Positions 3,175 through 64,000 of a stretch of DNA of 64,000 nucleotides are shown one piece after another (position 1 is the first letter of the stretch; each line of letters starts with the position of its first letter). Under the pieces are notes generated by a model that saw only the letters and a list, made by a program, of their open reading frames with translations, did not search any database and was not told the origin of the DNA. The position numbers and the translations under genes are program-made. This DNA comes from Marsupella aquatica. Lineage: Eukaryota; Plantae; Marchantiophyta. The stretch covers positions 18,478,757 to 18,542,756 of the forward strand of contig OZ316893.1 in assembly GCA_973895155.1 (NCBI GenBank), in the 5' to 3' direction.

Positions 3175-3398
3175 TTTCTTGCTGTTTGTGATGCAATGGC
3201 CAGTGCATGGCATGTTGTACTTCATTTCTGCGGTATGCATAAATAAAGAGTCCTACGAGGGTGCGATGTGAAATAAGTGATATGATGACAAGACTCAATT
3301 TTATCATGGTATGTATTGTCATACATTTGATCATAGTTAATCAGTCTCCTCATTAGCAACCGTCGTGTCGTTAGCAGCCTTCGGCGCACCGGGTGCCA

Positions 3399-16998: not shown

Positions 16999-17069
16999 GA
17001 AGCATCAACTTAATTAGGATTCACCAGAAAATATTTGCCAAATGCCACATAAAATGTTTGCACAGACAT

Positions 17070-18830
17070 AAAAAAGTCAAAACTTCTCCACCTTACCCTA
17101 AATGCATTTACCATGTCCTGTTTTTGACAATGAGGTATTTAGAAATGAGAGGAAACAACAAACAGTAACAGGAAACTGGTAATGAGAAATAGAAACTCGT
17201 AACAGGAAAATGGGTGGAAACTTTTTTTGATTTTTGTTTGAATTTTTTTTGGATTTTTTTTGTTTGAATTGTTTTTTTGAGAAGAAAAAGTTTTTTTTCG
17301 TAACCAACTTTTTTTGCTAGCGCCCGGTGCTGGTAATAGTAGCGCCCAAAGCTAGTCAAAAAATGTTGTATTGTTAATTTTGTTTGAAAATAAGATTTTT
17401 TAGGAGACAATTTAAATTGTCATTTTTCCTGGTACAGTGATTTTTTGTTGGTAACAGCATATTAAAAACAAGAAACAAATTTTGTATTTATCTATTTCCT
17501 GTCTCCGTCGCTATACCCTTGACAATTTCCAATCCAAGAAAGTGCCCATTTTGCCACCATTCTGGCAGCCAAAACTTTAGGGTTTCCTACAGTTGTCTGC
17601 AAATTTGGATTAATTAAGACATCTACAATGTAAATGTCATATTGTGTTGTATAATCTCCCTGATAGCTCCGGTTCACTGCAACATCAAGAGGCTGCAAGA
17701 GGGAGGTCAAATTTTCTGACACAATCCCCACAAACACATTGTAGTCCTCTAGTACCTTTGCATGTGCCTTGGGCCACTTCAGGTGGGGACCATATGCGTC
17801 AGTGATGTACAAAGTGGGCTCTCAGTAGAATTGGGTCTCACCCAACTTCATCACTGTTTCATTGAAGTGTTCCTAACATATCCGTTCATTCCACATACCT
17901 GCATAGTATAAAACCCACGGTCAATAATTAGAAAAGAGTTTGTTTACTGGCAACCCTCAAAAAGTCATGATAAACTACAAAAGAAAAGCTTTGCAAGATA
18001 AAAGATATAGAAAAAAATATATCTGTTGGTTAACATTGACAAACACGCCCAACGGGACTTCAGGTTTATTTTTCCTCTTTGAGATGAGGATGTGTGGTTT
18101 CAAATGTTTGCCTTCTCCTGTGATGGAAAAAGCTATGGTGAATCGTTTATGGCTGGTACCACCCTTTGTCATCATCACCATCCAAATGCCTTGGGTAGCA
18201 ATAGTGGACTTTGGCTAAGTCTCATAGTACCGTGGATGTTGATAATGTTTTTGGGCTTAATTTTGTTAGTGTCAATCAATTCTTGGCACTCTTGAATGAA
18301 TGCTTGACACAAGTCAACAACATTCTCTGGTAGCTTGTGATCTGTTGTGTGTCTCCTTGACACCAGGTTGTGTCACTTCTTGAACCTATCCAACCAACCT
18401 GTTGACGCTTTAAATGTTGCAAGCTCCTCATTTTCTGCGTTGGCTGCCATCCTCTCTACAATCTTGAAGGCCATCTTGGAGATGTACAAATCCTTCACCC
18501 TCAATCCCTTCTCATTCCGGGCCAGGATCCAACTGTGGAGCTCCTCCTCCACTCTGGGCAGCAATGGCCTCTGTCCACCTCCCCTTAACTAGCATGATTT
18601 TTGGGTTAAGATCTTATTGTCTGTAAGAGAGGCTTGCAACTCTGCCCTCTTCTCATACCACCCTCTTCAAGCAGATCGGGGCACTCCAATTTTTTTACCG
18701 AGTGTATTCCCGAATCACGTCCAACTTGAACTTAAGAGAGTAAGTCCGTCGCTTCTCATTTGCTGTCCCACGGGGATGTCTCGCCATAGCTCTATCACTC
18801 TACTTATTGCAAAGGAAAAATACCGTTCAT
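17070..18830 (-). pseudogene. pogo/Tigger-like transposase remnant (CENP-B-type HTH + DDE_1)
   Basis: VEEELHSWI...FKASTGWLDRFKK, KRFTIAFSITGEGKHLKP, YITDAYGPH and LTSLLQPLDVAVNRSY. Contains stops, frameshifts, a probable intron and a MITE insertion. Confidence 0.85.
17132..17518. mobile_element. MITE (MULE-like termini) inserted in the pogo remnant
   Basis: 8-bp TSD TTGACAAT (17124-17131, 17519-17526); termini GAGGTAT.../...ATACCC; two TAGCGCC-type palindromes (17318, 17340). Removing it restores the pogo frame LSWIGNCQKQDMVNAF. Confidence 0.75.
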
Positions 18831-26100: not shown

Positions 26101-26297
26101 AACCCTCTTCCCCGTGTGGTCTTCTTCTCATTGAAGATGGATTGTATGCAAGTAAAGCCTTTAATGCTAGGTAGAGCATTTCCCTCATATTCCCAAGTCT
26201 CCGTGAAAAGCAAGATGTCAAAATTCTCAAACAAAGGTTCCCCTCCAATTGCTGTTTCTATGGAAAGTCCTGAAACATTCCATGCCATGACTCTCAA
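23104..26297 (-). pseudogene. LINE ORF2 (AP endonuclease, reverse transcriptase, C-terminal Cys/His motif)
   Basis: WNVSGL, TETW, GDFNAR, TIDY, SSHLP, NYRTI, QAGFR, VDFSKAFD, GVIQGCPLSP, FADD, YKYLG. Disabled by a ~10-nt deletion near 24941 and a TAA at 23506. Confidence 0.93.
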
Positions 26298-26309
26298 GGT
26301 CCCGATCCA

Positions 26310-27080: not shown

Positions 27081-27146
27081 CACAAAGCTGAAACTGTTGT
27101 TAGAATGTACTCTTAGACGACAAATAGAAATTGGGAGCAGTAGAGG

Positions 27147-31834: not shown

Positions 31835-32463
31835 GTATTGTATCCTTGCAAGTCTACCAATAGCTAGTTTGGCATCCATGAAGTCCATTAGTGGCTGCGT
31901 GGAGATAACAAATAGGTGCAGCAACAGCGGATAGCCCTGTCTGACTCCCTGTTGAAGTCCTATCTCAGTTGATAACATTCTATTCAGATATATCCTTGAC
32001 GTTGCATTCTTAAGCAATGCATGTACCAATTTGCTGCTTATTCCTAATTAACAGATGCATTGTCTCCCAGATGTAGTCTTGGTCCACTCTGTCAAATGCC
32101 TTCTCAAAATCAAGCTTTAGAAAGAGTGCCTTGTTCTTCCTTTTTTCAGCCAATCAAAAGTTAAGTAGGCTAATTGTGGTGTGTCCCATGGCTCCCTAAA
32201 CCCAAGAAACCCCCCTACACAAGCCGGTTCCCGCAGGTTTCGCTCTCGGCGAGGCCGGTTCCGCGGCTTAGCGGCATGGGAAGCTGCTATCTCTCTTCTA
32301 CTAACATTTTACACACATATACTGGACAGATCCTTCATCGGGTCATGAGATACGTAGCCGGCCTATTCTATGCCTTCCCTTGTATTCCTCTTCTTATCTT
32401 CTTTAGGTATGTTTGGATTCCGCCACCGGAATGATCCCCAACTGGCTTGGGTTAGCCGCTAAG

Positions 32464-40052: not shown

Positions 40053-41900
40053 AGCTAAGCTGCATTTCTCCCTGAATCTCAATAGCGCGCTTGGCCTCTC
40101 TCTGGGATTCCCAAAATCAGCATCTCGTCTGTTTCAACAGAATCCTCCTTCAATCACATCTGCCCAATTTCTGACTCTGCAGGTCAATCCTTGGCTCATT
40201 CTTTATCTCCATTTTTACCATAGCCTTGCCTCCAGTTCACGTTCCTCCTTTGGATTACCTCTCGTGAATGACAAATCCTCATTCTTCTTCTTTTTCCTTT
40301 CTCAGCGTTACCATGCCCCTTTGCTTTCATTTGCCTTAATTCTAACTCCAAAAAATTCACAACAACATCTACGGCAGCGTCAACTCTTTCGGCACATTCA
40401 TCGCCCGACTTGTATTACAGTCCTTGTCTCCTGTCGATACGCCTTGCTTCACCCAAAAAGTTCAATTCCAAACAATCATGCTTGGCAGCACTTTGCTTTT
40501 CCCTTTTGCTCCCTTCTTCCAAAAATCCAAGTAACCACACAACACACTCTCCCCATTTGGCCATTTTTCTTATCTTTTTTGTCCCCAAACCTCCGTCGCG
40601 CCTCCGCCTTTCTTTCCAAAAAAAACCCAAAGCTCAACACACACAACAATTCCCATGAAAATCCGAGCATTCCAATTCCTATCCAGTCTTCTGCTTTCGC
40701 CAGCTTCTCCTTGTTCACCCAAGAGACCTCCCAACAGCTTCAGCGTTTGGCAGCACGCGCCCTTGTCACACTCTCTCCAAATCTTCCATTCTATCGTGCT
40801 CCCCCGCCTTCTCTCAAGAACTCCCCAAACAAAATCATTCCCGCATTCACCACCACTCCTTGTCTTCTCTCACCTTTTTCTTTTCAAACTCTCCAGCGCG
40901 CTCCATCCTTTGCGTCAACTTCTCGCAAAATCCACTCTAACCTCCTCGCCTCAGTTTGAAAACTGCCCTTATGAACCGGGTGCTCCCAGCTCACCACGTG
41001 TCAACGGTGTCGTTGGGATGGATGATAGAGGAAAGGAAGTGAAGGCCTTATTTTTGAGTTGGAAATATTTGGTGTGAGAAAGTTCAAAAAGACAAAAGAG
41101 GAATAAAACAAGTGAAAGTTGAAGCTTAGGCTTAAGGAAATAGAGACAATTATTGTGGTTGAGACACGTGGCATCCTGTGAGCACATTTCATAAGGGTCA
41201 GATTCAAAGTGAGACGCGAAGAGGAGGATCGGGAGGAAAATAACTGCCGATCGAAGAAGGAAGTTAGGGAGGGAGTTTGCGAAAGAAGGGCAATGGAAGA
41301 AACACTTTGACAATGAGATTGAGCAATGTGAACCCCCGGCATGAGTGACCAAAGAGGAGATCAGGCAACGGGGAGCACTGAGGGATGACTATATCAAACA
41401 AGGGGTGATCCAATAAAGCAATATGGTGTAAAAAGAGTTGTTCAGGAGGCTGAGAAATGTTAATACGAAGATCCATCCCAGGAAGTGTGAGTTTGCTATT
41501 AACTCAGTGGTTTACCTTGGGCATCTAATCATTCCAAATGGCACTATGGCTCATTGGGCTAAAGTCGTGTCTATTCTTGAGATGCCCAAGCCTACTGATA
41601 CTCACACTCTGGGAAGCTTCATTGGTCTATGTAATTACTACAGAATTTAAATCCAGGACTTCAGCATCATTGCTCACCCATTGTACATGTTGCTTAAGAA
41701 GGATGTTACCTGGAAATGGACTGAAGACAATCAGGTGGCAATTGAAACTTTGAAGGAAAAATTATCAAGTTACCCTATTCTCAGAAGGCCTGATTTCAAC
41801 AAAACATTCATTTTGCATACAGATTGGAGTGCTCTAGGTATTGGTGCCATTCTGGGTCAATCTGATGGGGACGGGCGGGAGTATGTCATTGCTTATGCGT

Positions 41901-44697
41901 TGTCGTCAGGAATAAGAGGATGAGAGGTGATGAAGGACTTCTTGTTTTGGGGAGCTTAGGTGTGGAGTTGAAAGTGAAACTTATTTAATTTGAAGAGAAG
42001 TGTCAAAGTCAAGTTCTAAGCTCCACGACGACCCAATGAGTCAAGGGAGCTGTGGCAAAAAAGCCAAATACAAAGCGAAGAAATGAGTCAAATGCTCATG
42101 TGAGGATCTCTACATCCTCACTAATAACAAACTAAGGACCTTAAGAGTCACTAATGTGTAATGATATCACATCGTTTCCTATCCACTGCCATGATATACA
42201 ATCCAAGTTGCTTTGGTGGCAACCTAAATAGATCATGCAGATCAGAAACAAGGATTTGATGTGCTATTTGAACCTCCTCATACCGTCTACATGCTATGAA
42301 TACATGAAGTGTGAGGAGAAGTCTTTCGGGAATAAGACAAAACAGAAATTAAAGAAGGAGAGTTTGTCTTAGGATAAGAAGAATTTAAAATGAATAATGC
42401 GGGAGTAACACGTGGCATTCCGTGAACACGATTCATAAGGGTCAGTTTGAAGTGGAGCGCAATATAAGGAGGATCGGGAGAAAGTAGGGGGTAACGGCCG
42501 AAGGAGGAAGGCAGTTAGAGGGATTCTCGGGAAGGAATTGAGGTGAAGAAGTGGAAATCGATGGACAGAGAAGGTGTGTGTGTATGCGCGATCAGATTCA
42601 GAGCCTTCGAGTGAAAAAGGGAATTGAGAAAAGGAGTTGCGATAGCGGAGGGTTAGCCAAGGGAAGCGTTGAGCAAGAAGGCAGCCAAAGGTAGTGAGAA
42701 TTGTGCGAGAATATGGAGCAGAGGTTAGTTTTCGTTTAGGAGAAACAAGGACAGCTTATGGCAGCAGTGAGCTTTTTCATGAGATGCAGGAATCAGGACT
42801 GAAGCACAATTTTGGCTCAGACTTGAGACAGAAGCAACGGAAAGATGTTAGAGAGGTCTTTGGGGAATAAGTGGAAGGCAAGGAAAGAAATGGCCAATTG
42901 TGAATATTGGAGTGAATAGGAGGAAAGGAGAGCAAAAGGAGAGAGGCTATGGTGGATTTTCTTGAATGATCGAGGAGGCGCAAAAAGGAGAAGCAGACAA
43001 AAATTGGGAGATTGAAAAGGAATTGCTATGGAAGAGATGGAATGAAGAAGTCAAGCTGGAATGAGCGAACAAAGGTCGGGGCATTATAGAGAGGTAACGA
43101 GAAAACAATCGGGATAAAAATTCAATGGAGAGGAAGAGGAATTCTGTCTGTCTGACAAAGGAGTCAAAAAAGGTGAGACTATGAGGTGAACTTTGGGAGT
43201 ACTGAATAAGTAAGAAGCCTGCACATGAGTGGAGCAAATTGGATCGAGTGATGGCTTGAAGAAGCACTTATCAGTGGAACAAAAATGGAGGACGTGAAGA
43301 CTTGAGGCAGAAATGCGAAGAAGAATTAGTGGAAAACCAGCGCCTGTCAAGATCATTCACTCGGTTGTTGTGAGTGAGGGAGTGGATGACAAAAACGGGG
43401 GACTACGCAGGTCTACTCGACAGAGAGGTCAAAGCTGAATCATCTGAAGTGATTGAAACTTGGATAGAAGGCGCTGCGGAGTATTTTTGCCAAGGCTGAA
43501 ATTGAGAAATAGAGGGTTCCACAGACAAGAATCAAACAGTAAAAGAGAGGACGATCGATGAAGGATGAATACCGATGGTAGAAGAAACAAGATTTGGACA
43601 GAGTAAAAATAAAGAAAGGAATGTCACCCATTGAGCACTGTACTGAGGCTAACGTGAATTAAAAGGGCTGAATTTGAACAAAGAAGGATATGAGGTGAGA
43701 TTGCCATTAACGAAAGTGATCATAAGGAAGGTTAAACGATGGGCGCATTTCACAGAAGATGAACAGGAAGAGTTCAGAGTACAGAAGAGGGAAACAAACT
43801 GCAGAAAAGGAGATTAGGGAATGGAGGTTAAAAGTGCCATTTCATAAGCTTTATTTTTGCTGAATTTGACTTTAGGGTGCTACAAGGAGGAAAAATGAGC
43901 CATTTATGGAATTAGTTAAGAAATTCCAACTAGAGTTATGGATCACCCAGACCACTATGGACTTGATGTTGTGGAGCTTTTGTAGTGAGTTTAAAATAAG
44001 GAAATTGACTTCTTTCGATGAGTGGAACCCGGTGATTGGGTCCATTTTTAGACTAGGGATTGTCCGCTGCCATGGAGTTTGAGGTTACCGGCCGTAGGTT
44101 TTTTTTTTTGTGGGACTCGAAGCTTGAGGAGAGGAGGAAGAAAGGACAAGAGGAAGAGTGTAAGAAGAATTAGGACATGAAGGAAGCTCGCCGGAGACTG
44201 AAGTTGTGTTCAAAGTGCCTGGGGGAAACCATTGACGAGCTTGAAACCGAGACCTGACCTGTTGACCTGAACTGAGTTTAGCATGGAGACCTGAGTTAGA
44301 GGATGAGCAACCAAAGAAAATGTTTTGTAAATCCGAACCAAAACTTCTTCTTTTGAGAATAAAAAGAAACAAATGATGAATTTGGACTATTTTGTTGTGA
44401 TGGAAATGATGAGTTGTTGTGGTGGAAATGTTTAGTTGTTGTTGAGGTGGAAATGATGAGTTGAAGTTAGATGAAAGTTATGTATGAGCGTGATCATGAA
44501 TGCAATGAATTTTAAATGAAAGAAAGTGATGGCATAGTGTTTTTTAAATAAGAATGACTTAGTGTAACAATATTAAAAATAAAAACTGAATAGGGTTAAG
44601 AGAAATTGAAACAACTTATGAAAATATGATGTTATGGCCAAGTCCCTAAAAACATAGAAAGTTCACTTTAACACCGCTTTAAACTGGCCCCCGGACA
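41901..44697 (+). mobile_element. Solo LTR, family C (~2.5 kb net of a LINE insert)
   Basis: TGTC...GGACA termini with GCGT duplicated on both sides; removal restores AYASSSNN. Confidence 0.78.
42003..42307 (-). mobile_element. RTEX family B 3' fragment
   Basis: Tail, UTR and ORF2 end; GAAGTGT at both junctions. Confidence 0.88.
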
Positions 44698-45047
44698 GCG
44701 TCTAGTAGCAATAACAAGGTTGAGAGCAACTACTCCTCTTATGAAGGCGAATGCTTGACTGTTGTGTGGACTGTCATACATTTCAGACCCTACCTATATG
44801 GCACTAAGTTCATGCTCTTTACCGATCATCAACCACTGAAGTGGTTAATGACCAATGATAAGCTTACTGGCAAGCTAGCTTGTTGGGCCCTCATTTTGCC
44901 TCATATTGCCTCATGCCTCTTTGTGGTCTCCTCTTCTGACCAACGAGCACCCTGAGCTTTGGCTAAAGCCATATCAGAGCATGAAGCATTGGAGCATTGG
45001 AGCATGAAGCATGAAGCATTGGAGCATTGGAGCATGGATCATGGAGC

Positions 45048-47647: not shown

Positions 47648-49662
47648 CATGTAGCAGCCCATTGAACGTTGGGTGCAAGAGCGATTGGGGCGCGTGGACT
47701 TCCTTGATGCAAATTTTCTGGGCCCCGATCAAGCTCATGCTGAGCATCGAGTTCCCTCTTCCAATTATATTTGGCTCAGGGGTTTAGGATTCAAGAGAAA
47801 CTACAAGCGGGCGAGGGCGGGAGTCGATGATGACTGTCAATCACAGAGCTAAAGGTGTTCCAATCGCAAGCACTTAGGTTATTTTGGAGTGCATCCCTAC
47901 GGCGATTAGGTTTCTAGGCAGCGAGATTTAAGCTAGCGCCCAGCGCTGCTAAAGCTTGATGCTTTCCATCTCCTTTTTTCAGTACTGAATGTTTTGTTAG
48001 GATTTGGTAATCTGGGTAATATGTTTTCGCCCATTTTGATAGGAAATGCTTTTTGGATCGACCCATTTTCCTCTCCATAGCATTATACATGGAAGGGAGG
48101 GATTTATAGTTTTAAGCTAGCGTTGGGCGCTACTTATACTCATTGCTTTCCGTCGCCCATGTAATCTCGGTGATATATTTTTGCCCATTTTTGAAGTAAA
48201 TAAATTTTGGATCGGCTCAATCTCCAATGTCTGGTTTTTCTCTCGATGGCGTTAAACATGGATTTCGGGATTTTGAGGTTTAAGCTAGAAACAAGATCCA
48301 GATATTGTTGTTGTATGACCCTGCCTCTATTGATTTGAATTGACTCATTTTCAGCCGCTCATTGTCTTCTCGATTGAGGTTACGTATATTTTTGTTGACT
48401 TTTTCCTTCTTCTATGAAACCCTACAACCTTTCCATTCGCTTCATTGATACCAGCGCTGGGCGCTGGTAATCATCGCAAATTTGGGTCGGACTACCCGAT
48501 GGGATATTTCCTCCAAAATGAGACGGTTTTAATGAAAATGACTCAAATGGGCTTTAATTTTGATTGTTTGTAATCCTTTTTTTGGTCCGATGTTTTCAGT
48601 TTTTACCTCCAATTTTCCTGGTAACAGTAACTGTTTCCTGTTACTGTTCCTGGTTCCTGTCTTTTCTAAATACCCCTTTGTAGATGAGCCACAATCATCG
48701 TCGATTCCAGTTGTAGATCGAACTGTATCTGGAACGAAACCATGCTCTCGGGTCCTGATGTAAGCCGCAGATGGACTTTGCTCGTCACCGCTTTGGGGAA
48801 ACACGCTAGGAACGGTGGTGTTATGGAAATCTACAGGCCAAGTTCTTTCTGTTTCCTCATTTCATCCTCCCGAGTTGGACTATGGGGAGGAGGTGGCCAG
48901 TGAACAGTAAACCTTTCCGCAAACCTCCTTGGCGGAGAATCCCTCATCCACGGGATCAGCGTTTCACCAGGACTAATCGCTTTGTCTTGTGGAAGGTTGA
49001 AGCGGTTGCGGAAGGCACTTGTTTTCGACCATTCGGGCTGTTCAGTCATGGGAACCGAACTCTCTTCCGAAATGATTGTAGTGTGTCTTTGAAAGTAGGC
49101 CGCAGAGATTCTCCTTGGATTATCCATGGCAGGTCAGCGAAAGAGCTCGAACACAATCGAAAGTGGGAAAGCACTATAAGACAATAATGGCGGATCACCC
49201 AGAGAGCAGATGCAATATTGGGCATTCAAGACTTAATTGCTCAAACATTATAGGGATTAGGGTGTAACCTCATGGCGACCTGAACCGCTCGCTCCATCCG
49301 AAAACGGCCGTTGCATCCTCAAACTCCCGTTATGGTCTAAAACGGCCGTCTCAACATCAAACGGGCATTTTCACCTCACATGACCATTGTGACAGACCAG
49401 ACAAAAGATTAACGGGAAAATTCGACTGACATCATCCAGAAAGTACGAGAGTACCAATGTACCAGCGTCATGACCGTCATACAATTATAGTAGCGCCAGG
49501 CGCTACTATAACAGAAAGTGTACTTTGAGTGAACACACCATGGTTGCAACTGACATATAATATCTTTTATTGTACAACATTTCTTGTATACATTTGGGTA
49601 GCGCCCAGCGCTAGCATAGTTCCACTATAAAATACACCCAAAATACACAACAGAGATCCAAG

Positions 49663-52600
49663 TTAATCTGAGCACTCCGATTCACTTGATTTGGACTTGT
49701 CGGTAGATTCTTCCTTGATGTCTAAAAATTTGCTCTTGGCCATATCATCCACAAATCGGTTCCGCATAAATTTTTTATTAGACCCCCTCCTCAATCTCAA
49801 GCCTTTATTCTCCCAGTGCACTATCGACTCTTCTAGCAACATTTTCAGCATAGGAAGGTAAGACAAATGGTTTCTCGGGAGTTTCAATATATCGCCTAGC
49901 TACTTTCCGTCTGAGTTGGAAACGCCGGCAAAGATTCCAGTCTGACCTGAGGAGGAGAATATTGGATTTTATGTCAACGGCCACAATATTTGCCAAAAAG
50001 GAAATAAAAAATGTGACATCAAAGAGAGAAGAAGGGAATCGACCGTAATAAAAAACCGAGTTAGCTTATGAGCTTACTCGATAGTTTCTTACTCATAAGA
50101 GTCTCCGCTGTCACTCCCTCCATTAGATTCTGGATCTTCTCCGGTTAGAGACACTTTGGGAATGTTGGGATCCTCCTCTTCTTCTTCCCCCTGTTCTGCT
50201 TCATTCTCATCTTTGGGGTCAAAATTTAATATTGATTTAAGTTTGTCTCTCTTTCTTTTTGCAAGCACAGGCTTCGGAGGGGCTTTGGACTCAAATACTT
50301 TGGGAGTTAGAGGGTCAAGAAATATTTTTGAAGCGGTTTCAACGAACTCCTTCCTATTCTCGAGCCCAATTACAAATCGACCACAATTATCACCTACCAC
50401 AAATGTACTCCCAGAACCTACAGCCCAATCCAGAACAATATCTCTGGGACACGTGATTGGTTCCAGAATAGACTGCATAAACCCTGGATGTAGTCTGGCA
50501 TTCCCGGAAAATTCAAGCTCGGGAGTTGTATCCACCTTCGCAAATGGAAGTCCGATCAGATTTGTGATAGAGGGATCCTCTGTTCTTGAAAGAGGTTTGA
50601 ACTTAGGATCCTTTGGGACTTTCACCTTGGATGATACCCGACAAAATATATCCAAACGTAAAGTGAATACCTGAAAAGGGAACATCAACAAGTAAGGACC
50701 TAAGAATTGTAATAGCGTCGGGCGCTAGCAAAGAATGAAGAGCATGATTAGTAGTGTACCTAGGAAAAGATTAAAATTTCTAATCGAGCACCAGATAATT
50801 TGAGCAGTGCTTGGCGCTAGCAAAACTTTGAAATTGTGATCAATAGATTTACCTGTAAATCAGACTTGGCCTTGTACATGGGGAACCCCATGACAACATT
50901 ATGTGTACACAAACACTGGAATTTCTTAGACTCTTGACATGCTGAGATGACCTGTGAAATCTGATCATACTCCCCCGTATGGAGTATCGCAATAATTCTG
51001 TCATTCAACAAAAAGGGATCCATTGCCCGGAAAAAACATCGGGCTAGCATACAGTCGGGAACGTTCCAAATTGGGGACCTTCCTATCAAGCAAAGTTGGT
51101 TTTAGCCCAGTTGGCAAATAAATAAAACCAATGTCAATACCAAAAGGCCTTTCTTTCCCACCCCTCACCACCCCTTCCAATCGGCATCCAGATTTGATTG
51201 AGTCCTTCCCCCACTTTTCGGCATCATTAACCCATTATGGCTTCTCCTCCTTGTTAAACACACTGTCCACTAATTCACTGACACTGGTCTCAACAAAACA
51301 ATGACGAGATGCCTTGGATTTAAAATTCCCAACATCACGTTGGAGCCCGGTGGCCGCTAGAGAATCCCTTTTTGATTGCCCAGCATCGCGAGTCCTCCTG
51401 CTTTTCTTCTTCATACTCGTTGCATCGACTTGTACAACTGATTTTCCAGAATTAACTGGTGTAAGTGGATCTGACACAGCGCCAGTATTTGCTTTTGAAG
51501 CTTCTGGGGTAACCTTCGTATCATCAGTGGCGTCTGCATCCGACTTCTTTTGACCTATTCACACAATGCAGAGAATGTGGGATTAGTGTCAGAAAGGAAA
51601 AACGGATTAAGGTTGAAGTATGGGAATAGTAGCGCCAGGCGCTAGCAAAGAACTAAACTGGGTTTGAATGAAAACGTATGTTTCTTCCTGGATAGCATTG
51701 ATGCACTTGGCAGTGCTGTGTCTACTTTCACTTTCCCTCTTGGCTTGCGGCTCCTGTCTACATGAACAACTACTGTCTCGCAGATTGTTTGTAACTCAGT
51801 AGATGATTTGTCGACGTCGCTCAAGAGCCCTTGCTTCATCTCAAAAACTATGTTGGGTAGAATCTGCAACTTGGCTAGTTTGAGAAACCAATCCTTCTCC
51901 ACTTCGTCAAATGGTGAATCCCACTTGTCTGTGTCAAGGTACCACGGGCAGTGAATTCTTTCCCACTCGGACATTTTCCATGGTGGTAGTTTACCCTCGG
52001 CAGGATACATTGAATGCAAGTCAGCAACATGATCTCCCTCCTTTGCAACAATCCACTTGTGAAATGCAGCTGGATACGCCCAAAGCGCATCCGGGGAATG
52101 TACTTCCATCCATATGTAAAAATGATACAAATACCTCTTGGCCCTCTTCTGATTTTTCTCTGTATATACCTCTTTATTAGGGTATTTTGATGGCCACATG
52201 GTGTTGAAGAACTTTGCCTTCACAAGATCCCCATACCTTCTGAACTCACTTGAAATAATTTCAATCAGACCCTCTATTGAGTCACACCCTGAATGGGCAA
52301 GCCTATCAACTTGGAGTGTTTCAATGGCTGCAAAAATTGCAGATTGCAACATCCCAATTGCGATTCCCTTGACGGTATTCCAGGTTTGCCATCTGTGACA
52401 CCACTAGCTGCTTCACTGGATCATCATTCACATTGGCAGGGTGGAAGAATTGTTTTCTCAACACAGGAGTACAGTGAGCAACGAGCAAAGTGCATCTCAA
52501 TTTTGGATCGAGAGCAGAAACTACTGTGAATAGTCTAGCACAGTCCATAGTACAAACAACCGAATTGGGTTTTTTCTCTCGCTTGTTCTTCTCTGTCAAT

Positions 52601-53716
52601 ACGTACATCTCTGCACAAGTACCTAGAAAATCTTCAAACTCAGGACTAAGAAGAGGAGTATTTTGGATGTTTTTGTAGACCAGTCTTTGGTGGCCTCTTT
52701 CAACATGAGTGACTGCCGCTTTGCGACCTCATCAGCCAACCAAGGATTGCCTTGACTTTCTGCCAATGCCATGTCCATCTTGAACTGGTTAGTGTAAGCT
52801 TTGAAATTTTTTTTCGCACAAAATATAAACAAGAGCTTCCAAGAGGCATTTTCCGTGTGTACCAAGAATGTTTTTGAGTCTTCTATTTGATATACTCAAA
52901 CTTTGCATAATTGGCGCTGTCAATTATTGACTTATAGTACTCTAGATCGTGAGAGAGAATCCTTTGGATTCTGTCTACGTCAAGGATCCACGACGGTTCA
53001 ACAATGGCCTGCCCTAACCTGCAATAGGCCATGTTTGAAATTAGTAGCGCCAGGCGCTAGCATAAAAACAAACACTCTCTTTAGTATTTATTTAACAACA
53101 ACGGGTTGCGGAAATCTTTAATTACAAGTTTGGGCTGAATTACTTACTGGTTGACTGTGTGCATAGCCGCCTCAATCTAAATTTGCGAAGCTTTATCACC
53201 CTTGAAAATGGTGCAGAGAACTTTGGGATGATACTTGACATTGTCTGGATTTTCCTTTGTGACCATAGTCCATGAGTAAAGTCGGTGATTCCCATCAAAG
53301 ACTAAGAACATTTTGTCTTTCAAGATCGTACAAGTTGGATGCCTTGCATTCTAACTCAAATTTCTTGTTCTCAGCAACCCAAATAGCATCCCAAGTCTCC
53401 CTGATCAGGACAGTGCATATTTTCTCCACACCATCGGAATCGGTCGGTTGCACAAAAAATTGCATTCCAATCCTTGGATTGTAGCCACTACTTTGGAATG
53501 AGTCTTTCAATTTCTCATTGACGCACTCTCCTTCTGAAGCGTCCGCACTACCTCCATGTGGATCAACCGACAAAGCGGAATCCTGGGCGGTTCCTTCTCG
53601 TTTCCCCGAAAATCTTTTCCAAATGACATTATGTGTCGCGAGATGACTTCATCCATCCCTAATCCAACCTCGTTGCCCTCTCCCAGCGCATAATCGGTCA
53701 TGCTATCCGTGTCCAT
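49663..53716 (-). pseudogene. Spliced ParB/Srx-like + beta-class N6A/N4C DNA-methyltransferase-like gene
   Basis: VFDGNHRL at 53296-53279 (DGNHRL), preceded by RIPLCRL..VVR..LKDSF..GY. IDIGFIYLPTG (motif IV position) at 51138-51106. HPGFMQSILEPITCPRDIVLDWAVGSGST..GRFVIGLE (motifs X, I, II). GT-AG introns at 53147-53019 and 50852-50671. Several frameshifts and stops. Confidence 0.7.
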
Positions 53717-54798
53717 TCGGACCCTTCTGGACTTCTAGAGTGGTAGTGTTGCGTTCAAGGAAGTGATTGCTCCGCTCGACCTTGTAACTCGACGCGAGTA
53801 AAATGCCCAGAGAACGAAGATTGTGTAGACTTGCAATGACCGTGATCTCCCTCTGGAACTGTGCTATACCCTCTTGGAGAGCTTGGGGCGCTTGAAGGTT
53901 GCATTGTGGAGCATGTCAATACGTGAAGGTCTCTGTACGGCACAAAGCCAGTCTCTACCCTCACGCTCCAAAAAAATTACCATACACAAAGAACTACATA
54001 AAACCTTTAAAACTTTTCCATCATAGTGCGGTTGACATCATGTGACGGAGAACGACGAGGATTGAAAGAATCTCACTGACCAATCCAAACAAAGACAGAT
54101 GGCAGGGATTGTTTGAAATGAGTAGAATTAAAGTCTATTTTCAAGTCATCTGTGGATGCAGCGATCAACGGGAGTGTATCGTTAAACAATCCAACGGAAA
54201 ACAACACAAAGTAAGGAATTTGTTCATACATGTTACCGTTAGATGTAACCATTGGGCAAACCAAAGTCATCTCCATCAATACTAGCGCCCGACGCTAGTA
54301 TCCCAAAACTATTAAAAATACTCTCATACATGACAATGACACGGAGGAGATTATGTCAGCGCCGGGCGCTAGCTATGTATACCCCTTGTATTTTCCCAAG
54401 AAGTAACGATTCCAAAACAAAATGAAACTTTATTGATTTTTCAGCAATTCCATCAAATTCAATAAAATATTTCGCTTTGACTTGACAGTCCGCTAATGAT
54501 AGCGCCTGGCGCTAGCACGTTCAGTCTGGTTTCTAAGTTGAAATCCGAGTACTTCTTTATGGTAGCGTCGGGCGCTAATAATTATCTGATCGCGTTTTTT
54601 ACACGTTACCGGTAAGTAGTGTCGTTGGCAAAATGACAAACTACATTTATGTGTCTGCATCTAACGACTAGTACCCATTTTGTCGTTTACAAACAATAAT
54701 CTTCTGAGGTTTGTAATGAGTTTACTTAACTTAAGTCGAGTAATGTTCTCCTATTTTCTCAGTTCCTTTGTTTGTCAAATTAAGATCATTCTCCCGCA

Positions 54799-57700
54799 AT
54801 GTCTAATTCAGTCGTGCTTCTTCATCCTGATATTGGGGAGATTGTATGCATCCCTGTAGGTTCATCCGACACGTACAAACAGGTTAGTGAGAACTATCTT
54901 TGTGGAAGATTTGACGTTGCCATCAACGACATCCATTCCATCAAACCTGACCATGCATCTGGAGAGGAGACAGATCATGCACTGTTTGATATCGATGATG
55001 GAGTCAGATTTTGGCACCTCAACGTTGGAAAGAGATACATTATCAATCTTCGACAACATTCCGTTCTGAATGAAATACATCCGGTTCCATTCATTGACCT
55101 TTCCAAGAGTGATGAGGAGGAGGTAGCCGTAGATTTGTAGACATCGGCCAATCCAGGGCCTTCTATCAAGATAGAAGGTCACTCTCCTTCCGAGCCAAAC
55201 ATTTTGGGGGGTGTTGTGTATCGTCAAAGCGCGATGGATGCCATTCTCAAATCAATTGGCCATAGTGAATTGTCGCGGTTCATCCAAACAAGTGATTTTA
55301 GGCATGAGCAGGTGAATTGTCTACCAAGTAAATATAATGGAAATGTTGTGCTTGAATTGCCTCCCACAGAAGGTCTGCTATCAAAAGGTTCGAGGCTTCG
55401 TGACATGGATTGGCCTAAAGACTGCTACTTCTGGACACGGATATTTCCAACTTCTGCGAATGTCCAACCTAAAAAGTTTTGGGAATTTGGTAAAGTGACG
55501 TGTACCGGTGCACTCGAATGTCAAAATCAGAAGTGTGATTATCTGTTGCGGAAGAAAAGAAGAAATTCAAAAGCTTGGGATGGGACACCCAAATTTGCGG
55601 GGCCACATACCGTGGGAAAGATTATTGAGGAGGGTGGGGTAGTTTGTCACTACTGCCAACAATTGCCCTTTTGTATTGAAGCTTGTCCAACAATGCTTTT
55701 TTATATGTACCCGCAATTACTTCTCGGCGCGGATACATGTAAACATATGTCGCGTCTTGCTGTGCATGTCGGAACTCATGCGCATCCCAATCGTAAAGTT
55801 TTTTCTTGTGGTGCGGAAAAGATTGCTCATGAGTTCATAAAGAAGCAACATGAAGCTACACCGTGTGCCACACCATCGGGTATGAAGAATGCCATAACTG
55901 GATCTTTAAGGAAGGCTCTTTGTGTGTCCAACAATGACATCGGAGAATCAGAGGAAAGAGAAATTTGGGAGTCGTTAATGGTTGTTCCGACCCCTCAAAA
56001 GTTTGCATCTCTTTTTTGGAGTGTTCGGCAAGACCAAAAAGGTAAAGGTGAGTTAGAGTTTCTTGTGGAAATGCAGAAATGCATAAACTTTCCCTTTCTA
56101 CAACGTTACATGCTCCCAGGTCAAGGCTGTAAGGAGGAGAGGCCGCATATTTTCAAAATGATGGTAAAAGGGCACGGATCTGGGGTTGATTTGTTGCGCC
56201 AAATGCAACCTGGAGGTCGACTAGAAGGCGCGTGGGTTAGTTTTGATGTGATGAGGAGAATGACCAAGGATTGGATAACTTTTAGCACTCACGTTTATGA
56301 TCACAATTACCGTGCTCTTTGCACAATCTTCACATGTGAGTTGAAAGCTGAAGATTCTGAGTCGTTAGAAAAAGCCTGGAAATTGATGATTGAGGTTTGC
56401 CATGAAAATGGGTTAGACAACGTAGTAATCCATGGACAATGCTCAAGCTGGATGGAATGCTATTCGGAACGTGTTTTTTGGTGGACATCCTAACCCAGAA
56501 AAGGAGCGATTGGATGCGTTTCACTTCTATCAATCGTTTCATCATCATTCAATTGAAGGAGTATTGGAAGAAAAACGAGAAGAGCACTGGAAGATGTGGG
56601 ACTCTTTAAGGAACGCGTCAACATTTCTTGGAGCCTACAAAATTTCCAGGGAAATTGACGTGTGGTGGAGATCAGGGAATTGTGTTCCAAGAAAGCTTCG
56701 GATGGTCCAAGGTTGGCTTGTGTGGTGGGTGGTCCGATGGCGTCAATGGGGAAATTTCATTCGTTTGGTGAGTTTCAACATCCATAAACAAGTAAACACT
56801 CAAAATCAACATTTTAAAAGAAGGAATCAAACAAAGTCATACTAGCGCTTGGCGCTATCATTATTTCCAATGACTTTTGTGTCCTAGTTCCACTCCAATA
56901 TTTGCCCGATTTTTTATACTAGCGCTCGGCGCTAGTTTTTATTAACCACTTGTTACTCGTATTTGTCCATATTCTAGGGTGAATGGTGGTAGCGCTAGGC
57001 GCTGGCATTGATTAATCCCGAAAACCTTACAAAATGATTTGGTTCAAACGTTTCTTTATTGAATGCAGTGACTAAGTCATATTTCCTAAACTGTGCTCCA
57101 AATGTTTTCTGCAGAACAAAAGCGTAGAGGAAAGCGCTATGATTCCTAAGTGTACTACTTCAGAGGCGGCACATTCCATAATGAAGGCTTGACAAACTAA
57201 GAAAAAGGCTGGTCTATTTGAAGCATGTGAGATGGATCAAAATAGGGCTCTTTCACAAGTTGTTGCGTATACGGCATATAAGAGAGGTCTTAACCGAGGA
57301 ACCGGACCTACAATTTGGGAATTGGCATTCCGTTTGGCAGACCAGGCAGGTTCTTCAAAACTTTTCCAAGATGCTTCCAATATGCTTCTTTCCGGTGCGG
57401 CTGAATTTGACCTCGAAAGGAGTGGCCCTCTCAATGGGGATGTTACCACAAAGTCTATGAAGAGGAAAGGTCAAGCCTCTGGGAACATCTCGGCACAAGA
57501 CTCCCATCGGCATGACACTATTCTTGTAACATCACCAAATACTCGAGGCATGAAAAGGAAAAACTTAAACAAGACTGAATTCTCCCCCATTGCATTGGGT
57601 CCTGTTCACCATGACATTGGCGTTGTGGACCTGTCAGAAAGTGAAATTGAAGAAGGCATTCATTGGAGTACTCCGCCCTGGAGGAGGTCAACAAGGTTGT

Positions 57701-58632
57701 CTGCAGCCCCGCAAAGTGCACCTCCCAACCTCCAAAAGGTTGTCCATGACTCAACTGTGTTGGAGACAGATGTGCGACCAGGGGCGTGGCACCTACAAAG
57801 AGTGACGAGACATGGTGCAGGGCCTCAGTGTAATGGATCTCTTGGTGGAAAATCGGATCAAGATGACTGTCGCAATCGTCTGAAAAAGGTTGGTTACCCA
57901 TCAACGGATGGTGTAGTTGGCATTGTTGTCAAAGAATATCGCGTGTTTAGGGGAGAACCACACCCTGAGATGATTTGGTTTTGTCCCAACAGTGCATGCT
58001 ATAAGAGCCAGCCCCGTCGTAATGTGGTGAATCTTCCCCCATTTCCTCATAGCCTGCCCGTTTTGAAAGGAACTAATCTTTCCGAAGCTGAGGTCCAATT
58101 CCTGACTCAGCAAGGGATTGCTATCAATCCAGAGGCCGGACGTCAGGCTGCTCCATCTCCTTTTGACTTGCGAATCAATGTGAACCTTTTCTTGGAGAAA
58201 ATCAATCTCCTTGAGCCAAATATCCGCCTTTGGAGTAGGAATGGTAAAAATACAATCCCACGTTCAAATCTTTCGCAAGGGCACAACAAAAGAATTGAAT
58301 CCGCAAACACGGAGTCGATGACCCTCGTTCAACAATTTGATGTTTCTGTCGGGAACTCTTGGGGCAAACAATTTCAGATCCAAACCCAAGAGAGACTTCG
58401 CACGACAAACACTTATTGGGTACAGATTTGCATTTTCCCATGTTGTTCTTGTGAGGACTTCTATCGTCGCCATTCTCATGGCAGGCCCTTCATGCCGTGC
58501 AAGCATCTCTATTGGGTGTATACCAACTTCCTAAAACTAGATGTGGTGGATTCAACTTTAGCTAGTCAGCCAATTCTTACTGTAGGTGAGGTGAGGCTCA
58601 TTCTAGCTAGGCAGAATTCTCTGGACTTCTAG
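54799..58632 (+). pseudogene. Mutator-like transposase with GCM-like Zn domain and C-terminal SWIM finger
   Basis: CTGALEC..C...CHYC..C...GTHAHP; VSFDV..HVYD..MDNAQAGWNAI..AFHFYQS; TTSEAAHS; CSCEDF..CKHLYWV. Intron 56768-57114 joins in frame. Stops at 55138 and ~57190, frameshift at ~56432. Confidence 0.78.
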
Positions 58633-59145
58633 ACTAGACATTTAGTAACGTTCAACGGCTCCAAACTGATTTGTCGCATTGGAACTTTTCACATCTTTTC
58701 AATGATACCTAATCAGATACTCATTTTCAGTACACATTTTGTTATAACATATGGCTAGCGCCGGGCGCTAGCTTTAGTTTGTCCTGTTCTGAGTGAATCT
58801 TGTTTGATTATGGTCCGAATGCTTTCCAGTACTTATCTTTGCGAACGGAATTTCCATTTGTGATTTTTCCTATATTTGAGTTCTTCTCGTGGGATATAAA
58901 TCTACCCCTTCCAGGTCACACTTCATTGAAGTGTACTTAATTATTTATTTATGAACACCATTCAATCCATTTGGTCTCATCTCAAACCCCTTGGTTTTTT
59001 GTTAGCGCCTAGCACTATTACATAGTACCTTACCGATTCCGATGGTATTTTTAAGATTGGTATTTTTTGAGTGTGCCTCGCCTCAGTAGCCTGTGTATGG
59101 TGGGACCCACATATATGGTGGACAAGTAATATGGTTTACGCACAT

Positions 59146-62100
59146 ATGGTGGAGTTTTAATGAAGATTGTAGGTTGATTGAGTTACATTCATTCAGCGAG
59201 TGGAATCCGGTAGTTGAAACTATATTTAAGTTAGGGACTATCCGTTGCCATGGAACTTGAGGTTACCGGGCGTAGGTTTTTTTGTTGTTGTGGGACTGGA
59301 AGCTTGACAAGAGGAGGAAGAAAGGACAAGAGGAAGAGTGCAAGAAGAATGAGGACATGAAGGAAGCTTGCCGGAGACTGAAGTTGTGTTCAAAGTGCCT
59401 GGGGGAAACCATTGACGAGTTTGAAACCGAGACCTGATCTGTTGACCTTAACTGAATTTAGCATGGAGACCTGAGCTAGAGGATGAGCAACCAAAGAAAA
59501 CATTTTGTAACCCCGAACCAAAACTTCTTCTTTTTTAAATAAAAAGAAACAAATGATGAATTTGGACTATTTTGATGTGGTGGAATGATGAGTTGTTGTT
59601 GTGGTGGAAATGATGAGTTAAAGTTAGATGAAAGTTATGTACGAGCGTGATCATGAATACAACAAATTGTAATGGTAATGGTAATGGTAATGTATTATAA
59701 GCTCCGGGACCATGAAAGTCAAAGGAGCTGCCACAAAAAGTAAAGTACAATGCAATCAAAGAAAAGAGCAACCAAAAGAGATTGCTCAGAAGAGGACAAC
59801 TATGTCCTCAAAGAAACTATGGACCTAGAGAGCCCTATGGACCTAGAGAGCCCTGAAAGATTTTCCAAACCTATTCTCCTTTCCCTATCCACCGCAAAGA
59901 TATATCTTCCAAGTTGTTGAGGGGGCAGACCAAACAATGCATACAAATCTTTCACCAAGATTTGAGATGCCATCCTAACCCCCTCATAAAACTTGCAAGC
60001 AATGAATACATGATATTCATTCTCTATACTAGAGCTATCACATAGTTGACAAACTCTCTTTTTCCTGTCAATATCCTTCCATCTCCCTTGTTCTACTTCA
60101 AGGTGGTGTGAGCTTAGTCTATACTGAGCAATAAGTTGTCTAAGTTGTACTGAGATAGTGCTAGATAAGTATTCTTGTTCTCGATATTTCTTCATGGGGT
60201 TCACATCTCTCATGTAGTATTGCTGCCGTGGGCTAGGTTCATGCCAAAGTTTGTGCAAAGCCTTTTGCTCAAGTTTTGCTCTTAGCTTGGTTGGGTGTGT
60301 TGGCCATTCATGTTCAGGAAAATCCCAAGCATGGGCCCACCTGCACACATCTGCATACCACCCTTTAGCTGAAGATGAGCGCAAGGCATGAAAAGGAAAT
60401 CTGTTTTCCTCCAACTCTCTTACACGCATGATGTATTTGAGTGTGTGGAAGAGTGCCTCCACCTCCAAAGGAAACAAGCCTGCCTCTGCAAGTGTAAGTG
60501 CATATGGGGTTTGTGACTTGATCCCAAGCTCCATCTCAAGAAATAGCTTTTGCAGCCCCTCAATCTGTTGCCACCCAGATTTAGACACACCTGCTCCCCA
60601 AATTGGTGCTCCATAAAGAATGACTGGTTTCACCAAAGCTCCAAAGAGATGTTTCCTTAACCTCTAAGTGTGTAGACCAGCTCTTTTGCATTTGTTCATG
60701 AATGCATAAAAAGCTCTGTACCCATTGGCAGCCCTAGATTTTACACATGAGGCCCAACTCAAGTTTTGAGAGAACTCCACCCCAAGGTATTTGTAGGTCC
60801 TCACAAATTCCACCAGATTCCCTTGGAAGTAGAGCTCTGGATTTTGTCGTGTGCCAATGCCCAAACACTTGGTCTTCTTGAGGTTGACTACCATCCCTGT
60901 TGCTTGACAAAACTCCTCCAAGGCATTGAGATGTCTTTGCAAAGCTTCTTGAGCATGAGCAAGTAGGACCACATCATCTGCAAATATAAGAAGTTGGAGG
61001 ACAAACCTACCCAATTGAGTGCCAACTCCACCATGCTCCTCCAAAATGTTGTGTAGCTGATCAATGAAGATGCCAAAGAGAGTTGGTGAGAGAGGACAAC
61101 CTTGGATCACCCCAAGAGTGCTCCAGATTTCTTCAGAGGTTTCCTTTGAAAGTTTGATGCGCACTTCTTGGTACAATTTAGAAACAGCCAACCTGAGCTC
61201 TTCAGGCACTTCCAACTCCACCATCCTATCCCAAAGCTTGGATCGGGAAACTTTGTCAAAGGCCTTGGAGAAGTCCACAAACAAGCAAAATAATGGTTTA
61301 TGTGGAGATTTGGCCTTTTCACACAACACCCTCAAGCAGAGAATGTGATCCATAGTGCTGAATTCTCTCCTAAAACCTGCTTGTGAAGGTGCCCTTTTCA
61401 TCTCACTCTCCAACCAAGAGCTTAATCTGGCTTCAAGTAGTCCTCCCAAAACTTTAGCAAAAGTATTGCCTACCATGATGGTTCTGTAGTTGTGCACATC
61501 GTCCTTGTTGCCTGCCTTGAAGATAGGCACCACTCTTCTGGTCATCCAAGCTTTAGGTAAACCTAAAGCCATTGCTTGATTCAGCTCATGCACCAAGTTT
61601 GTTAGTAAAGAGGGTCCTCCCCACAAAAGAAGCTCCAAGTTCAGGCCCAACAGATCTTTAGCTTTCCCATGTTGCATGTGGGAAAGATGCACCTTCACCT
61701 CCCTCTCTGTAAACTGAATGGTGTCCCCAAGGGGCAAAGGCATGCCACTAGCATCTGGAAAGAAATGCAAGGATGTGACATAGGTTACCAGGTCCTGGTG
61801 ATCCAAGGGGGGAGTAGTCTTGCCTGATTGCATTCTCTCCCAAAAACGTTTTGGATGTTTGATGAACTCCTCACATAGTGATTGTTGATGACTCTTCAAG
61901 AAGCACCTCTTCTTGTGTTTGATGAAGTTCTTGTACATAGTGAATGCCAAAAGTCTCTTTTCCCCTGAATGTGATCTTGCTTGCATCCTTGCTCTAGCAC
62001 AATCCTCGTCAAACCAAGCCTTCATGTTTTGCTTTCTAGGGGGTTTGGTGGAGAAAGTAGAGGCTGCTGCTTGTGCTATGACTTCTGAGAGCTCAATCTG

Positions 62101-63795
62101 ATCATCCAGGGTATGGAGAAGATGTTCAAAGTTGGCTTTGAAGATGACTTCTCTATCAGGGTCTAGAAACAGAGGTTTGGGTACTGGCTTTCTATGCACT
62201 TTGTTTGGGATTGTGGTCAGGTCAAGATGGAACAACAAAGGCAAGTGTGAAGACTCTGGTTGTTGATCAAATATTTGAAAGTCAACCACTCTAGTGGCAG
62301 AGGTAGGTGAGGCAAGAAGGTAATCAATGGTACTACATCCTTGTTTAGATCTAAAAGTGTAACCAGATGATTGGGGAAATCTCTCAAGCCCATTCAATAT
62401 TCTTAGATTACAAGAAGCTCCCAAATGCAAAAAGTGACGTGTCATGTCATTTGTTCTGGTGTCAAGAGCCTCTCTCACCCAAGGTATCTCTTCACTACAT
62501 GATGACCAAGGTAAAGTTCCTAAGTCCTCACTTTCAGTAAATTGTTCATTAGATACCCTGGCATTAAAGTCCCCCACTATCCATGTCTCCCCTAGTGGTG
62601 ATATATCATGAATGACTTGGATTAACCTATGAAATGGATAATGTGCATCAGCAATTCCCATCTTATAGACATTCATATTAAGGGGAGCAAAGTAGGTGAC
62701 AATCAGAAATGATGGAGTACCTCTGGTATGAAGTCTCACCACCATGAACTGCTTGCTGGGATCTTCATGTTCAATAGAGGTGATGTGTTGAAGTTGATTC
62801 TTGGTGTAGACAGCAATGCCTCCAAACCCTCTTCCCCGTGTGGTCTTCTTCTCATTGAAGATGGATTGTATGCAAGTAAAGCCTTTAATGCTAGGTAGAG
62901 CATTTCCCTCATATTCCCAAGTCTCCGTGAAAAGCAAGATGTCAAAATTCTCAAACAAAGGTTCCCCTCCAATTGCTGTTTCTATGGAAAGTCCTGAAAC
63001 ATTCCATGTCATGACTCTCAAGGTCCCAATCCATCATTTAGAAACAACTCTCTTCTTATTGGTAACAACAGCTTGTCCATTGCGCAAGTAGGCTACCAAT
63101 CCTTGGTCTTTGGCTACCCTCACCTTCTCAAGCTCAATTTTCCTTGCTTGGACTTGTGTGGGAGTCAGATCATCATCCAACCAAATCCTTAGCCCTTTAA
63201 GCATGCTCCTGTTAGCCATCACTCTAGCTTTCTCGGATTCAGCTGCAAACTTCACCAAGATTGGACGTGGAAGGTCCCCCTTCTTTTGCCCAATCCTATA
63301 TGCTTGCAAAATGATAGGGTCATGCACTTTCATCTGAGATTGGAAGAATGAAATTGCTACCTTCTTGGTGTCTTCCTTCTCCTCCTCAACAAGGCCTGAT
63401 ATTTTGCAGTTGCTGACTCTTGCATGCTGGTTCTTGTGTTCTTCTTCTAGTGCTCTCCTCTCCTCCTCCTTGGCTTGGACAAATTCCATATGTGATTGTT
63501 TTGCAGCCTGTGCAAAGGTTTTGAGCTTCTCCTCAATCTCCCCTACAGCCTCATGTATCACTGATTTCTCTGGCACATACTCTTCTCCATGTCTCCAAAA
63601 CACGATGCAAATGAAAGAAAGCGATGGCTTAATATTTTAAATAAGAATGACTTAGTGTAATTTGGCTTTAGAAATGAAAACTGAATAGGGTTAAGAGGAA
63701 TTGAAACAACTTGTAAAACTAAGATGTTATGACCAAGTCCCTAAAAACATAGAAAGTTCATTTGCACACCGCTTTAAACTGGTCCCCGGACAAGA
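59146..63795 (+). mobile_element. 3' part of a family C 5' LTR (split by a LINE), followed by a PBS-like site
   Basis: Homologous to ~43970-44697. Ends CCCCGGACAAGA, then TGGCAACCATATTGGG at 63797, resembling a tRNA-Arg-type PBS (TGGCGACCA..). Confidence 0.7.
59669..63610 (-). mobile_element. RTEX family A, near full length (truncated in ORF1)
   Basis: ORF2 59800-63021 has a single TGG>TAG at 60664; partial ORF1 at 63034-63603; (TTACCA)n tail. Confidence 0.94.
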
Positions 63796-64000
63796 GTGGC
63801 AACCATATTGGGGAACTCGCGGATCATTAGTTTTAGGGACATGCAATTAGTGCATGGGAAAGCCATTAGAACCTATTGAACGTGAAGAGAATAGAGGCCT
63901 GAGCGAGACAAAGCTAGAAAGGGAAAATGAAGATAGGACAAGAGTTAGAGACGAGCAAGGAGAGCGATTATTGAGGGCCATAGGTTCGTTTAGGGTTGAG

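Follow-up and report, generated by a model that had tools for sequence, protein, structure and literature searches.

A conserved array of palindromic sites in the introns, spacer and ends of a Mutator-type transposon from the liverwort Marsupella aquatica

What reads a short palindrome that a transposon carries in many copies, none of them within an inferred exon? The question is raised by a 64-kb stretch of contig OZ316893.1 of the liverwort Marsupella aquatica (assembly GCA_973895155.1, positions 18,478,757 to 18,542,756), hereafter the window, in which a decayed copy of a multi-copy Mutator-type DNA transposon lies at 47655..59110, its ends being approximate. The element carries two divergent genes, namely a transposase gene (54799..58629, + strand) and an accessory gene (49666..53734, - strand) that combines a ParB-like domain with a methyltransferase (MTase) fold. 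A sequence-only reading of the window had proposed that a 15-bp palindrome, confined to introns and spacers of this locus, provides cognate cis sites for the element's own protein. We report that the site array is real, conserved and linked to the element. By analogy with the VANC proteins of VANDAL elements, the sites may be binding sites for an element-encoded dimer, most likely the accessory protein, with a role in anti-silencing; this is the reading we prefer, while giving it somewhat less than an even chance.

The pattern TAGCGCYNRGCGCTA has eight exact matches in the window against 0.00 expected, and allowing up to two mismatches gives 20 matches against 0.16 expected, with a maximum of two in shuffled sequence. 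Eighteen of the 20 fall within 47934-59017 (eight exact, eight with one mismatch and two with two mismatches), which confirms the original count at the locus. The other two, at 17318 and 17340, lie outside it, so the claimed confinement was too strict. The 15-bp consensus was likewise right in describing a real palindrome, but only eight of the 18 copies fit it exactly, and stacking the 36 half-sites extends the site to 21 bp, TRS-TAGCGC-YNR-GCGCTA-SYA. From the outside inwards, a half-site has T in 27 of 36 cases, a purine in all 36 (position -2) and C or G in 29, followed by TAGCGC and the YNR centre. A weight-matrix scan of the window returned 20 sites of at least 18.6 bits, the next best scoring 4.4 bits, and other centre lengths gave no comparable set of sites there. 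Deviations among the 36 half-sites include six T-to-C changes at the outer position and six C-to-T changes, two of which strike the CpG; the CpG is intact in 34 of 36 half-sites, in agreement with the earlier remark that CpG-rich copies survive in decayed DNA.

Placement is equally selective. No site overlaps an inferred exon (0 of 18; p ~4.5e-8, the element being 39% non-coding), as first stated, and the partition given in the sequence-only reading was reproduced: three sites in the transposase intron, four in accessory-gene introns, four in the spacer between the genes and seven in the flanks (five left, two right). The left flank holds 47934..47948 and its local duplicate 48118..48132 (one mismatch each), 48452..48466 (two mismatches, with C at the outer position on both arms), 49491..49505 (exact, with perfect 12-bp arms) and 49599..49613 (exact). 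In the accessory gene, sites occupy three of the four inferred introns, with 53045..53059 (exact) in intron 1, 51630..51644 (exact) in intron 2, and both 50805..50819 (two mismatches) and 50713..50727 (one mismatch) in intron 3. The spacer contains 54283..54297, 54357..54371 and 54563..54577, each with one mismatch, and the exact copy 54500..54514; the transposase intron contains 56843..56857 and 56920..56934 (both exact) and 56990..57004 (one mismatch); the right part contains 58756..58770 (exact) and 59003..59017 (one mismatch). Thirteen of the 18, from 49491 to 56990, are thus internal to the element. One of the five inferred introns of the two genes (49947-50092) has no site. Two local duplications, in intron 3 and in the 47934/48118 region, each copied a site, and the remaining 52 kb of the window hold none apart from the outlying pair.

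Conservation was assessed at two levels of divergence. A metagenome contig, L001, with 65% identity in the best transposase segment and 71/140 in exon 2, carries the homologous transposase intron, in which three palindromes occur (shuffles: mean 0.03, maximum 1) with the half-site TGCTAGCGC and a centre of 2 nt, not 3 nt; the original pattern misses them because of this shorter centre. Once the sites are masked, the introns of the window and L001 align at the level of shuffled sequence (24 versus 25.9). For close copies of the 501-bp spacer, 40 of the 58 differences were listed, at 39 places. Of these places, three coincide with one of the 84 positions inside sites, where 6.5 would be expected; two of the three changes restore the consensus and one remains a purine, and none of the listed changes breaks any of the 72 constrained positions (p ~0.0025, an optimistic value given the 18 further differences, the kinship of the contigs and the likeness threshold). 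The consensus letter appears at 54292 in some related contigs and at 54568 in about half or more of the related depth. In contigs of related subfamilies, 39-40 unlike letters separate an exon end from a site that lies at the same distance as in the window. Spacer copies and the L001 intron therefore both bear out the expectation that the site is conserved relative to its flanks. At L001 1165-1240, the middle site sits inside a perfect palindrome with 29-bp arms and a 2-nt centre (z -13.3), where template switching possibly took place.

Wider searches returned little. Word-seeded protein searches gave 0, 1 and 1 relatives. Scanning metagenomes yielded 0 loci among 83 candidate stretches and 1 among 108, and a viral scan yielded 0 among 3. 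In viral contigs, the 15-mer matched 85 stretches without any cluster, two adjacent loci of one contig with two matches being treated as chance, while the L001-type 20-mer matched 0 times and the 21-mer once. Across prokaryote genomes (596 Gb), the 21-mer gave 32 isolated matches and no cluster, also treated as chance.

Two explanations would dispense with a DNA-binding protein. The palindromes might work as hairpins of RNA or of single-stranded DNA, in splicing control, as a small-RNA source or as cruciforms: nine of ten folded intron sites give the expected stem, the three L001 sites fold strongly (z -4.0, -4.6 and -13.3), and site 48452 is altered on both arms together. However, variable positions show no surplus of pairing between arms (symmetry 49 versus 49.7 for shuffled half-sites, p 0.62), position -1 is paired in 5 of 18 sites, the strict purine at -2 reflects a requirement on sequence, the window's own folds are modest (z +0.8 to -2.7), sites also occur in the spacer and ends, and Rfam has no match. 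As the arms vary independently and the purine is strict without pairing, the palindrome behaves as the site of a dimeric protein, and we regard the hairpin as quite improbable. The copies could otherwise be what is left, only outside exons, of a small independent mobile repeat or of an intron-generating element, which would suit their presence in two transposon superfamilies and the lack of intron 3 in P0157, a relative of the accessory protein. Against this, the flanks of the copies are as unlike as shuffles (19.0 versus 18.2 of 60, neighbouring pairs excepted), no common target duplication exists among them, the window's many other repeats lack the site, and the site is kept while its flanks diverge. 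This alternative, which the sequence-only reading had itself raised, is thus already largely refuted by the unrelated flanks and missing target duplication, and has very little left to recommend it.

The host of the array is a multi-copy family of which the window copy is decayed. Contigs from all four runs examined (three organism labels, three studies) span the whole 11.8 kb, filling 29-30 of 30 bins, with 244 to 3846 contigs per run, whose identities range from below 90% to above 99%. Related contig pieces start at 47653 and end at 59110, and the neighbours are different truncated repeats, the homology to a long interspersed nuclear element (LINE) stopping at 47665 and another repeat beginning at 59149. 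The two ends show no inverted similarity indicative of terminal inverted repeats (TIRs; score 22 versus a shuffle mean of 23), and the ends of this copy are possibly truncated. Mutator-type elements characteristically have long TIRs, except for a non-TIR group, and make target site duplications of 8-11 bp. The ratio of observed to expected CpG (o/e) per 2 kb is 0.55-0.89 in the element, 0.08-0.23 in the adjacent LINEs and 0.36 in a pogo-like gene discussed below. No gene was recognised within 47.7-49.4 kb, and ARAGORN called no tRNA, nor was any Rfam family matched. The segment 48380-48683 (+) is T-rich, ends in an acceptor-like TTTGTAG and resembles the pogo intron's 3' end; it may belong, as an intron, to an unrecognised third gene or to a non-coding transcript at 47.7-49.4 kb.

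The transposase gene, broken by stops and by a frameshift near 56434, encodes a GCM-like zinc domain, a DDE core with DxxH and a C-terminal SWIM domain. The window transposase therefore has the WRKY-GCM1/transposase/SWIM layout of Mutator-like elements (MULEs), as given in the available text of PMC1702500 and PMC6446971. The catalytic D, D, DxxH and E are visible by eye in the window copy, as is the SWIM signature CSC..CKH, and one relative, P0040, is named SWIM-type. The intron (56768..57114, +) has GT..AG borders, is in phase 0 and occupies the same position as in L001. Relatives numbered 315 at E<=0.001; four of the ten examined carry names, and the named ones come from the liverworts Calypogeia fissa and Riccia sorocarpa. 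A structural model of relative P0011 built from 95 sequences reached a predicted local distance difference test (pLDDT) score of 83, whereas folding from the single sequence gave an unusable 34.7. With this model, the ISCth4 (IS256/Mutator) transposase ranked 1-4 and 6, with a best E of 1.4e-3, not below 1e-3, and a GCM domain (1odh) ranked 5 (E 6e-3, probability 1.00); a wide structural search was filled by helical bundles. Pfam yielded no MULE match for the transposase, scattered weak hits for the 95 aligned members and a family for 0 of 18 relatives, and the transposase profile had no match in the PDB by sequence.

The accessory gene comprises five inferred exons and is broken by stops and frameshifts. 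The introns of both genes were placed using splice signals and relatives, namely P0001 (which spans exon 2 exactly) and P0157 for the accessory gene and L001 for the transposase gene. Intron 1 (53019..53147, -) runs from GTAAGT to TTGCAG, and P0001 begins just past it. Intron 2 (51555..51679, -) has AT instead of GT as its donor in this copy, and is supported by related contig pieces that end at 51588 and restart at 51681. Intron 3 (50671..50852, -) is made up of a 92-bp unit imperfectly duplicated in tandem, both units bearing one site and a donor-like end, and P0157, which lacks it, aligns continuously across it. Intron 4 spans 49947..50092 (-). The encoded protein has a ParB-like domain, about 450 aa of unrecognised fold and a beta-class MTase fold, in this order. 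The ParB-like domain keeps Box II GxxR as DGNHR; its Atlas matches, which have 126-148 features in common with it, are DUF6551 (0.92) and ParB_N (0.91, on 11% of members), and it matches a PHROG ParB-like family at E 0.049 and DGQHR at E 0.0023. The middle exon (450 aa) has a single match, P0001, at 30% identity, and P0001 itself belongs to no family in Pfam, PHROGs, NCBIfam or Atlas. No ParA was found among the 12 and 5 open reading frames of the element that were scanned.

On the accessory pieces and P0001, Pfam found nothing besides N6_N4_Mtase (E 1.6e-7, above cut-off). The MTase domain is permuted, with motif IV ahead of motif I; the motif I region is kept and HPTQKP is not retained. BLASTP paired DLIFLALPTG of P0157 with DMILCDLPYG in a methylase from a phage, at 22% identity across 234 residues, so that motif IV reads YLPT in the window (DIGFIYLPTG), ALPT in P0157 and DLPY in the phage enzyme. 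The catalytic form of this motif is [DNSH]PP[YFW], according to the portion of PMC4738411 available, and both catalytic positions are substituted in the window copy and in P0157. Because these two sequences share the T, the loss is likely older than their split, and the domain is predicted to be inactive. The sequence-only reading had offered methylation as a second role for the palindromes, as targets of the element's own MTase (4mC or 6mA). The N6_N4_Mtase match, the motif I region and the intact CpGs would accord with this, but motif IV is replaced and HPTQKP is not retained. Judged from these two sequences and a pairwise identity of 22% to the phage enzyme, that branch is very unlikely.

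Which protein, then, would bind the sites? Some protein very probably does, and it is probably encoded by the element; if so, the accessory protein is only slightly favoured over the transposase, whose GCM-like domain makes it a close rival. The available text of PMC5735166 reports that VANC21 binds introns, intergenic DNA and terminal non-coding DNA of VANDAL21. Lying in introns, spacer and ends, the present sites are distributed more like those of VANC21 than like those of terminal binders, which favours the accessory protein. Like VANDALs, the element is of Mutator type, has an accessory gene and has amassed a short motif in non-coding DNA, and in VANDALs the motif also differs by family, spreads by local duplication and occurs in an unrelated element, AT9TSD1 (accessible parts of PMC5735166 and PMC10398659). 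The earlier proposal of cognate cis sites in a VANDAL-like arrangement is thus supported by the flank conservation of the sites and by their two-fold protein-site behaviour, while its methylation branch is not supported. By the VANC analogy, the purpose would be anti-silencing: each subunit of a dimer would read TRSTAGCGC, and binding would keep introns, promoter spacer and ends free from host silencing. Site copies would multiply by local duplication, and the length of the centre (3 nt here, 2 nt in L001) would shift with the protein and so set family specificity.

Several observations weigh against this interpretation. Searches of Pfam, PHROGs, NCBIfam and Atlas recognised no DNA-binding domain or helix-turn-helix (HTH) in the middle part of the accessory protein. 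None of eight tandem arrays reported by TRF includes a site, unlike the arrangement in VANDAL. CpG o/e is a weak sign of protection since other parts of the window are equally high. The arms of the L001 palindromes are perfect over 12, 14 and 29 bp, which fits a hairpin or cruciform, and L001, being 2 kb long, is silent on the accessory gene in that relative. The GCM domain found with the P0011 model would equip the transposase for binding, and the copies in the unrelated pogo-like element also suit a host factor.

If the transposase bound the sites as a dimer through its GCM-like domain, the accessory protein would be incidental, and binding would activate the element's own transcription, gather its ends without long TIRs, or both. 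In L001 the sites still accompany the transposase gene, and no TIR was found at the element ends; GCM itself, however, binds a non-palindromic octamer as a monomer. The accessible text of 10.64898/2026.08.24.746577 has the AtMu1 transposase alone binding a motif and hypomethylating cognate copies, and describes the AtMu1 transposase and Spm TnpA as element-encoded proteins that bind clustered CG-containing motifs and cause hypomethylation of cognate copies. It places their binding at termini and TIRs, whereas 13 of the 18 sites here are internal, and we judge the transposase a serious but somewhat unlikely candidate. A host transcription factor or demethylation-targeting protein, exploited by several transposon families, could instead read the site. 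The half-site is common to distant relatives, some contigs match the site alone and then diverge, and the outlying pair (17318..17354, two mismatches each) lies within a transposase gene of pogo/Tc5-like type (HTH_Tnp_Tc5 E 5.8e-10, DDE_1 E 0.05), inside one of its inferred introns. Yet a change of centre from 3 to 2 nt between families would present a fixed host dimer with a different geometry, and elsewhere in the window 52 kb offer no site beyond that pair. The 3' part of the pogo intron moreover resembles 48597-48681 (score 76, shuffle maximum 35), and this further sharing with the left part of the element points to capture. Its simplest reading is capture from the Mutator element, as with AT9TSD1, an unrelated element that hitch-hikes on VANC6 motifs according to the available text of PMC5735166; a host factor is the alternative for this pair, and as an account of the whole array it is unlikely.

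The pogo/Tc5-like gene itself (16474-18800, -) is decayed, with two inferred introns, the first of which holds the outlying sites, and a 21-nt micro-exon.

Comparison with known systems shows where the likenesses end. By the VANC analogy the element would work like VANDAL/VANC, yet it is not a member of that group and has no VANC homologue. Its accessory protein joins a ParB-like domain to an MTase fold and has no VANC-type Pfam match. VANC motifs are 8-9 nt long in tandem arrays, against a mostly dispersed 21-bp inverted repeat here, and the accessible text of PMC5735166 never uses 'palindrom' for them. With ParB-parS and the orphan ParB-CTPase fold fusions the element shares the GxxR Box II and repeated palindromes near the gene, and ParB-MTase fusions occur in bacteria and phages (PMC12704722, available part). 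Unlike ParB-parS, it is a eukaryotic transposon with a spliced gene, no ParA and no recognised HTH. The site is also unlike canonical parS. Lacking a ParA and a recognised HTH, the element is not a ParABS system. A bolder version would have a ParB-MTase fusion of prokaryotic origin taken over as a parS-like marking system that protects the whole element from methylation. In it, a dimer would load at its own palindromes, the ParB fold would close as an NTP-gated clamp and slide along the element, the dead MTase fold would grip or shield CpGs, and protein and site spacing would co-diverge between families; we consider it improbable.

The MTase fold has partial counterparts in eukaryotes. MpDN4MT1 of the liverwort Marchantia and the bdelloid N4CMT are likewise prokaryote-type beta-class folds in eukaryotes (10.1101/2021.02.12.428880 and PMC8885841, accessible text). 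Compared by description in those same parts, MpDN4MT1 shows TSPPY and comprises no further domains; here motif IV is lost, and a transposon carries the domain as a fusion with ParB. The DIRS1 retrotransposon carries an N6A-MTase-fold domain judged inactive from its catalytic substitutions, but it belongs to another MTase group and another element class, and the available portion of PMC4738411 describes no array of DNA palindromes. A literature search on titles and the openings of abstracts, with few subscription papers covered, returned no Mutator element with a ParB/MTase-fold gene or with this site.

The rest of the window is rich in repeats. LINE 3' ends with a short-repeat tail occur in many copies that are 95-100% identical, including two near-full ones of 3.9 kb, with an o/e of about 0.1 (4258, 19645, 21761-22063, 22977-26887, 28240, 32986, 39328, 45048 and 59670-63610); this family is recently active and strongly CpG-depleted. 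A repeat of 800-900 bp is present in three copies that are 75-86% alike (30930-31836, 43890-44700 and 59149-63797), two of them interrupted by insertions, and is not part of the Mutator element. Tandem repeats include about 5.8 units of 181 bp at 27146-28190 (CpG o/e 0.95) and an array of 14-bp units at 19240-19490, directly upstream of the pogo-like gene. At 129-1109, nested inverted repeats (143-172/250-279 and 357-385/1081-1109) are possibly like a miniature inverted-repeat transposable element. The first 70 bases of the window resemble tRNA-derived sequence, although ARAGORN calls none, and a Gypsy-type reverse transcriptase/RNase H-like fragment was seen by eye at 41300-41900.

Sequence-specific anti-silencing by proteins of transposons is known mainly from VANDAL of Arabidopsis, Spm and AtMu1. 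The spreading of VANC's effect past its binding sites is described as an open question in the available text of PMC10398659, and a ParB clamp, if the parS-like version is true, would offer a concrete spreading mechanism. The site being defined to the base, and existing in a natural variant with 3 versus 2 nt spacing, the co-evolution of protein and site is directly testable, and a compact site-protein pair could serve to keep transgenes unmethylated. If the anti-silencing reading is true, this liverwort element would represent an independent anti-silencing system, assembled from prokaryotic parts in a land-plant lineage that diverged early.

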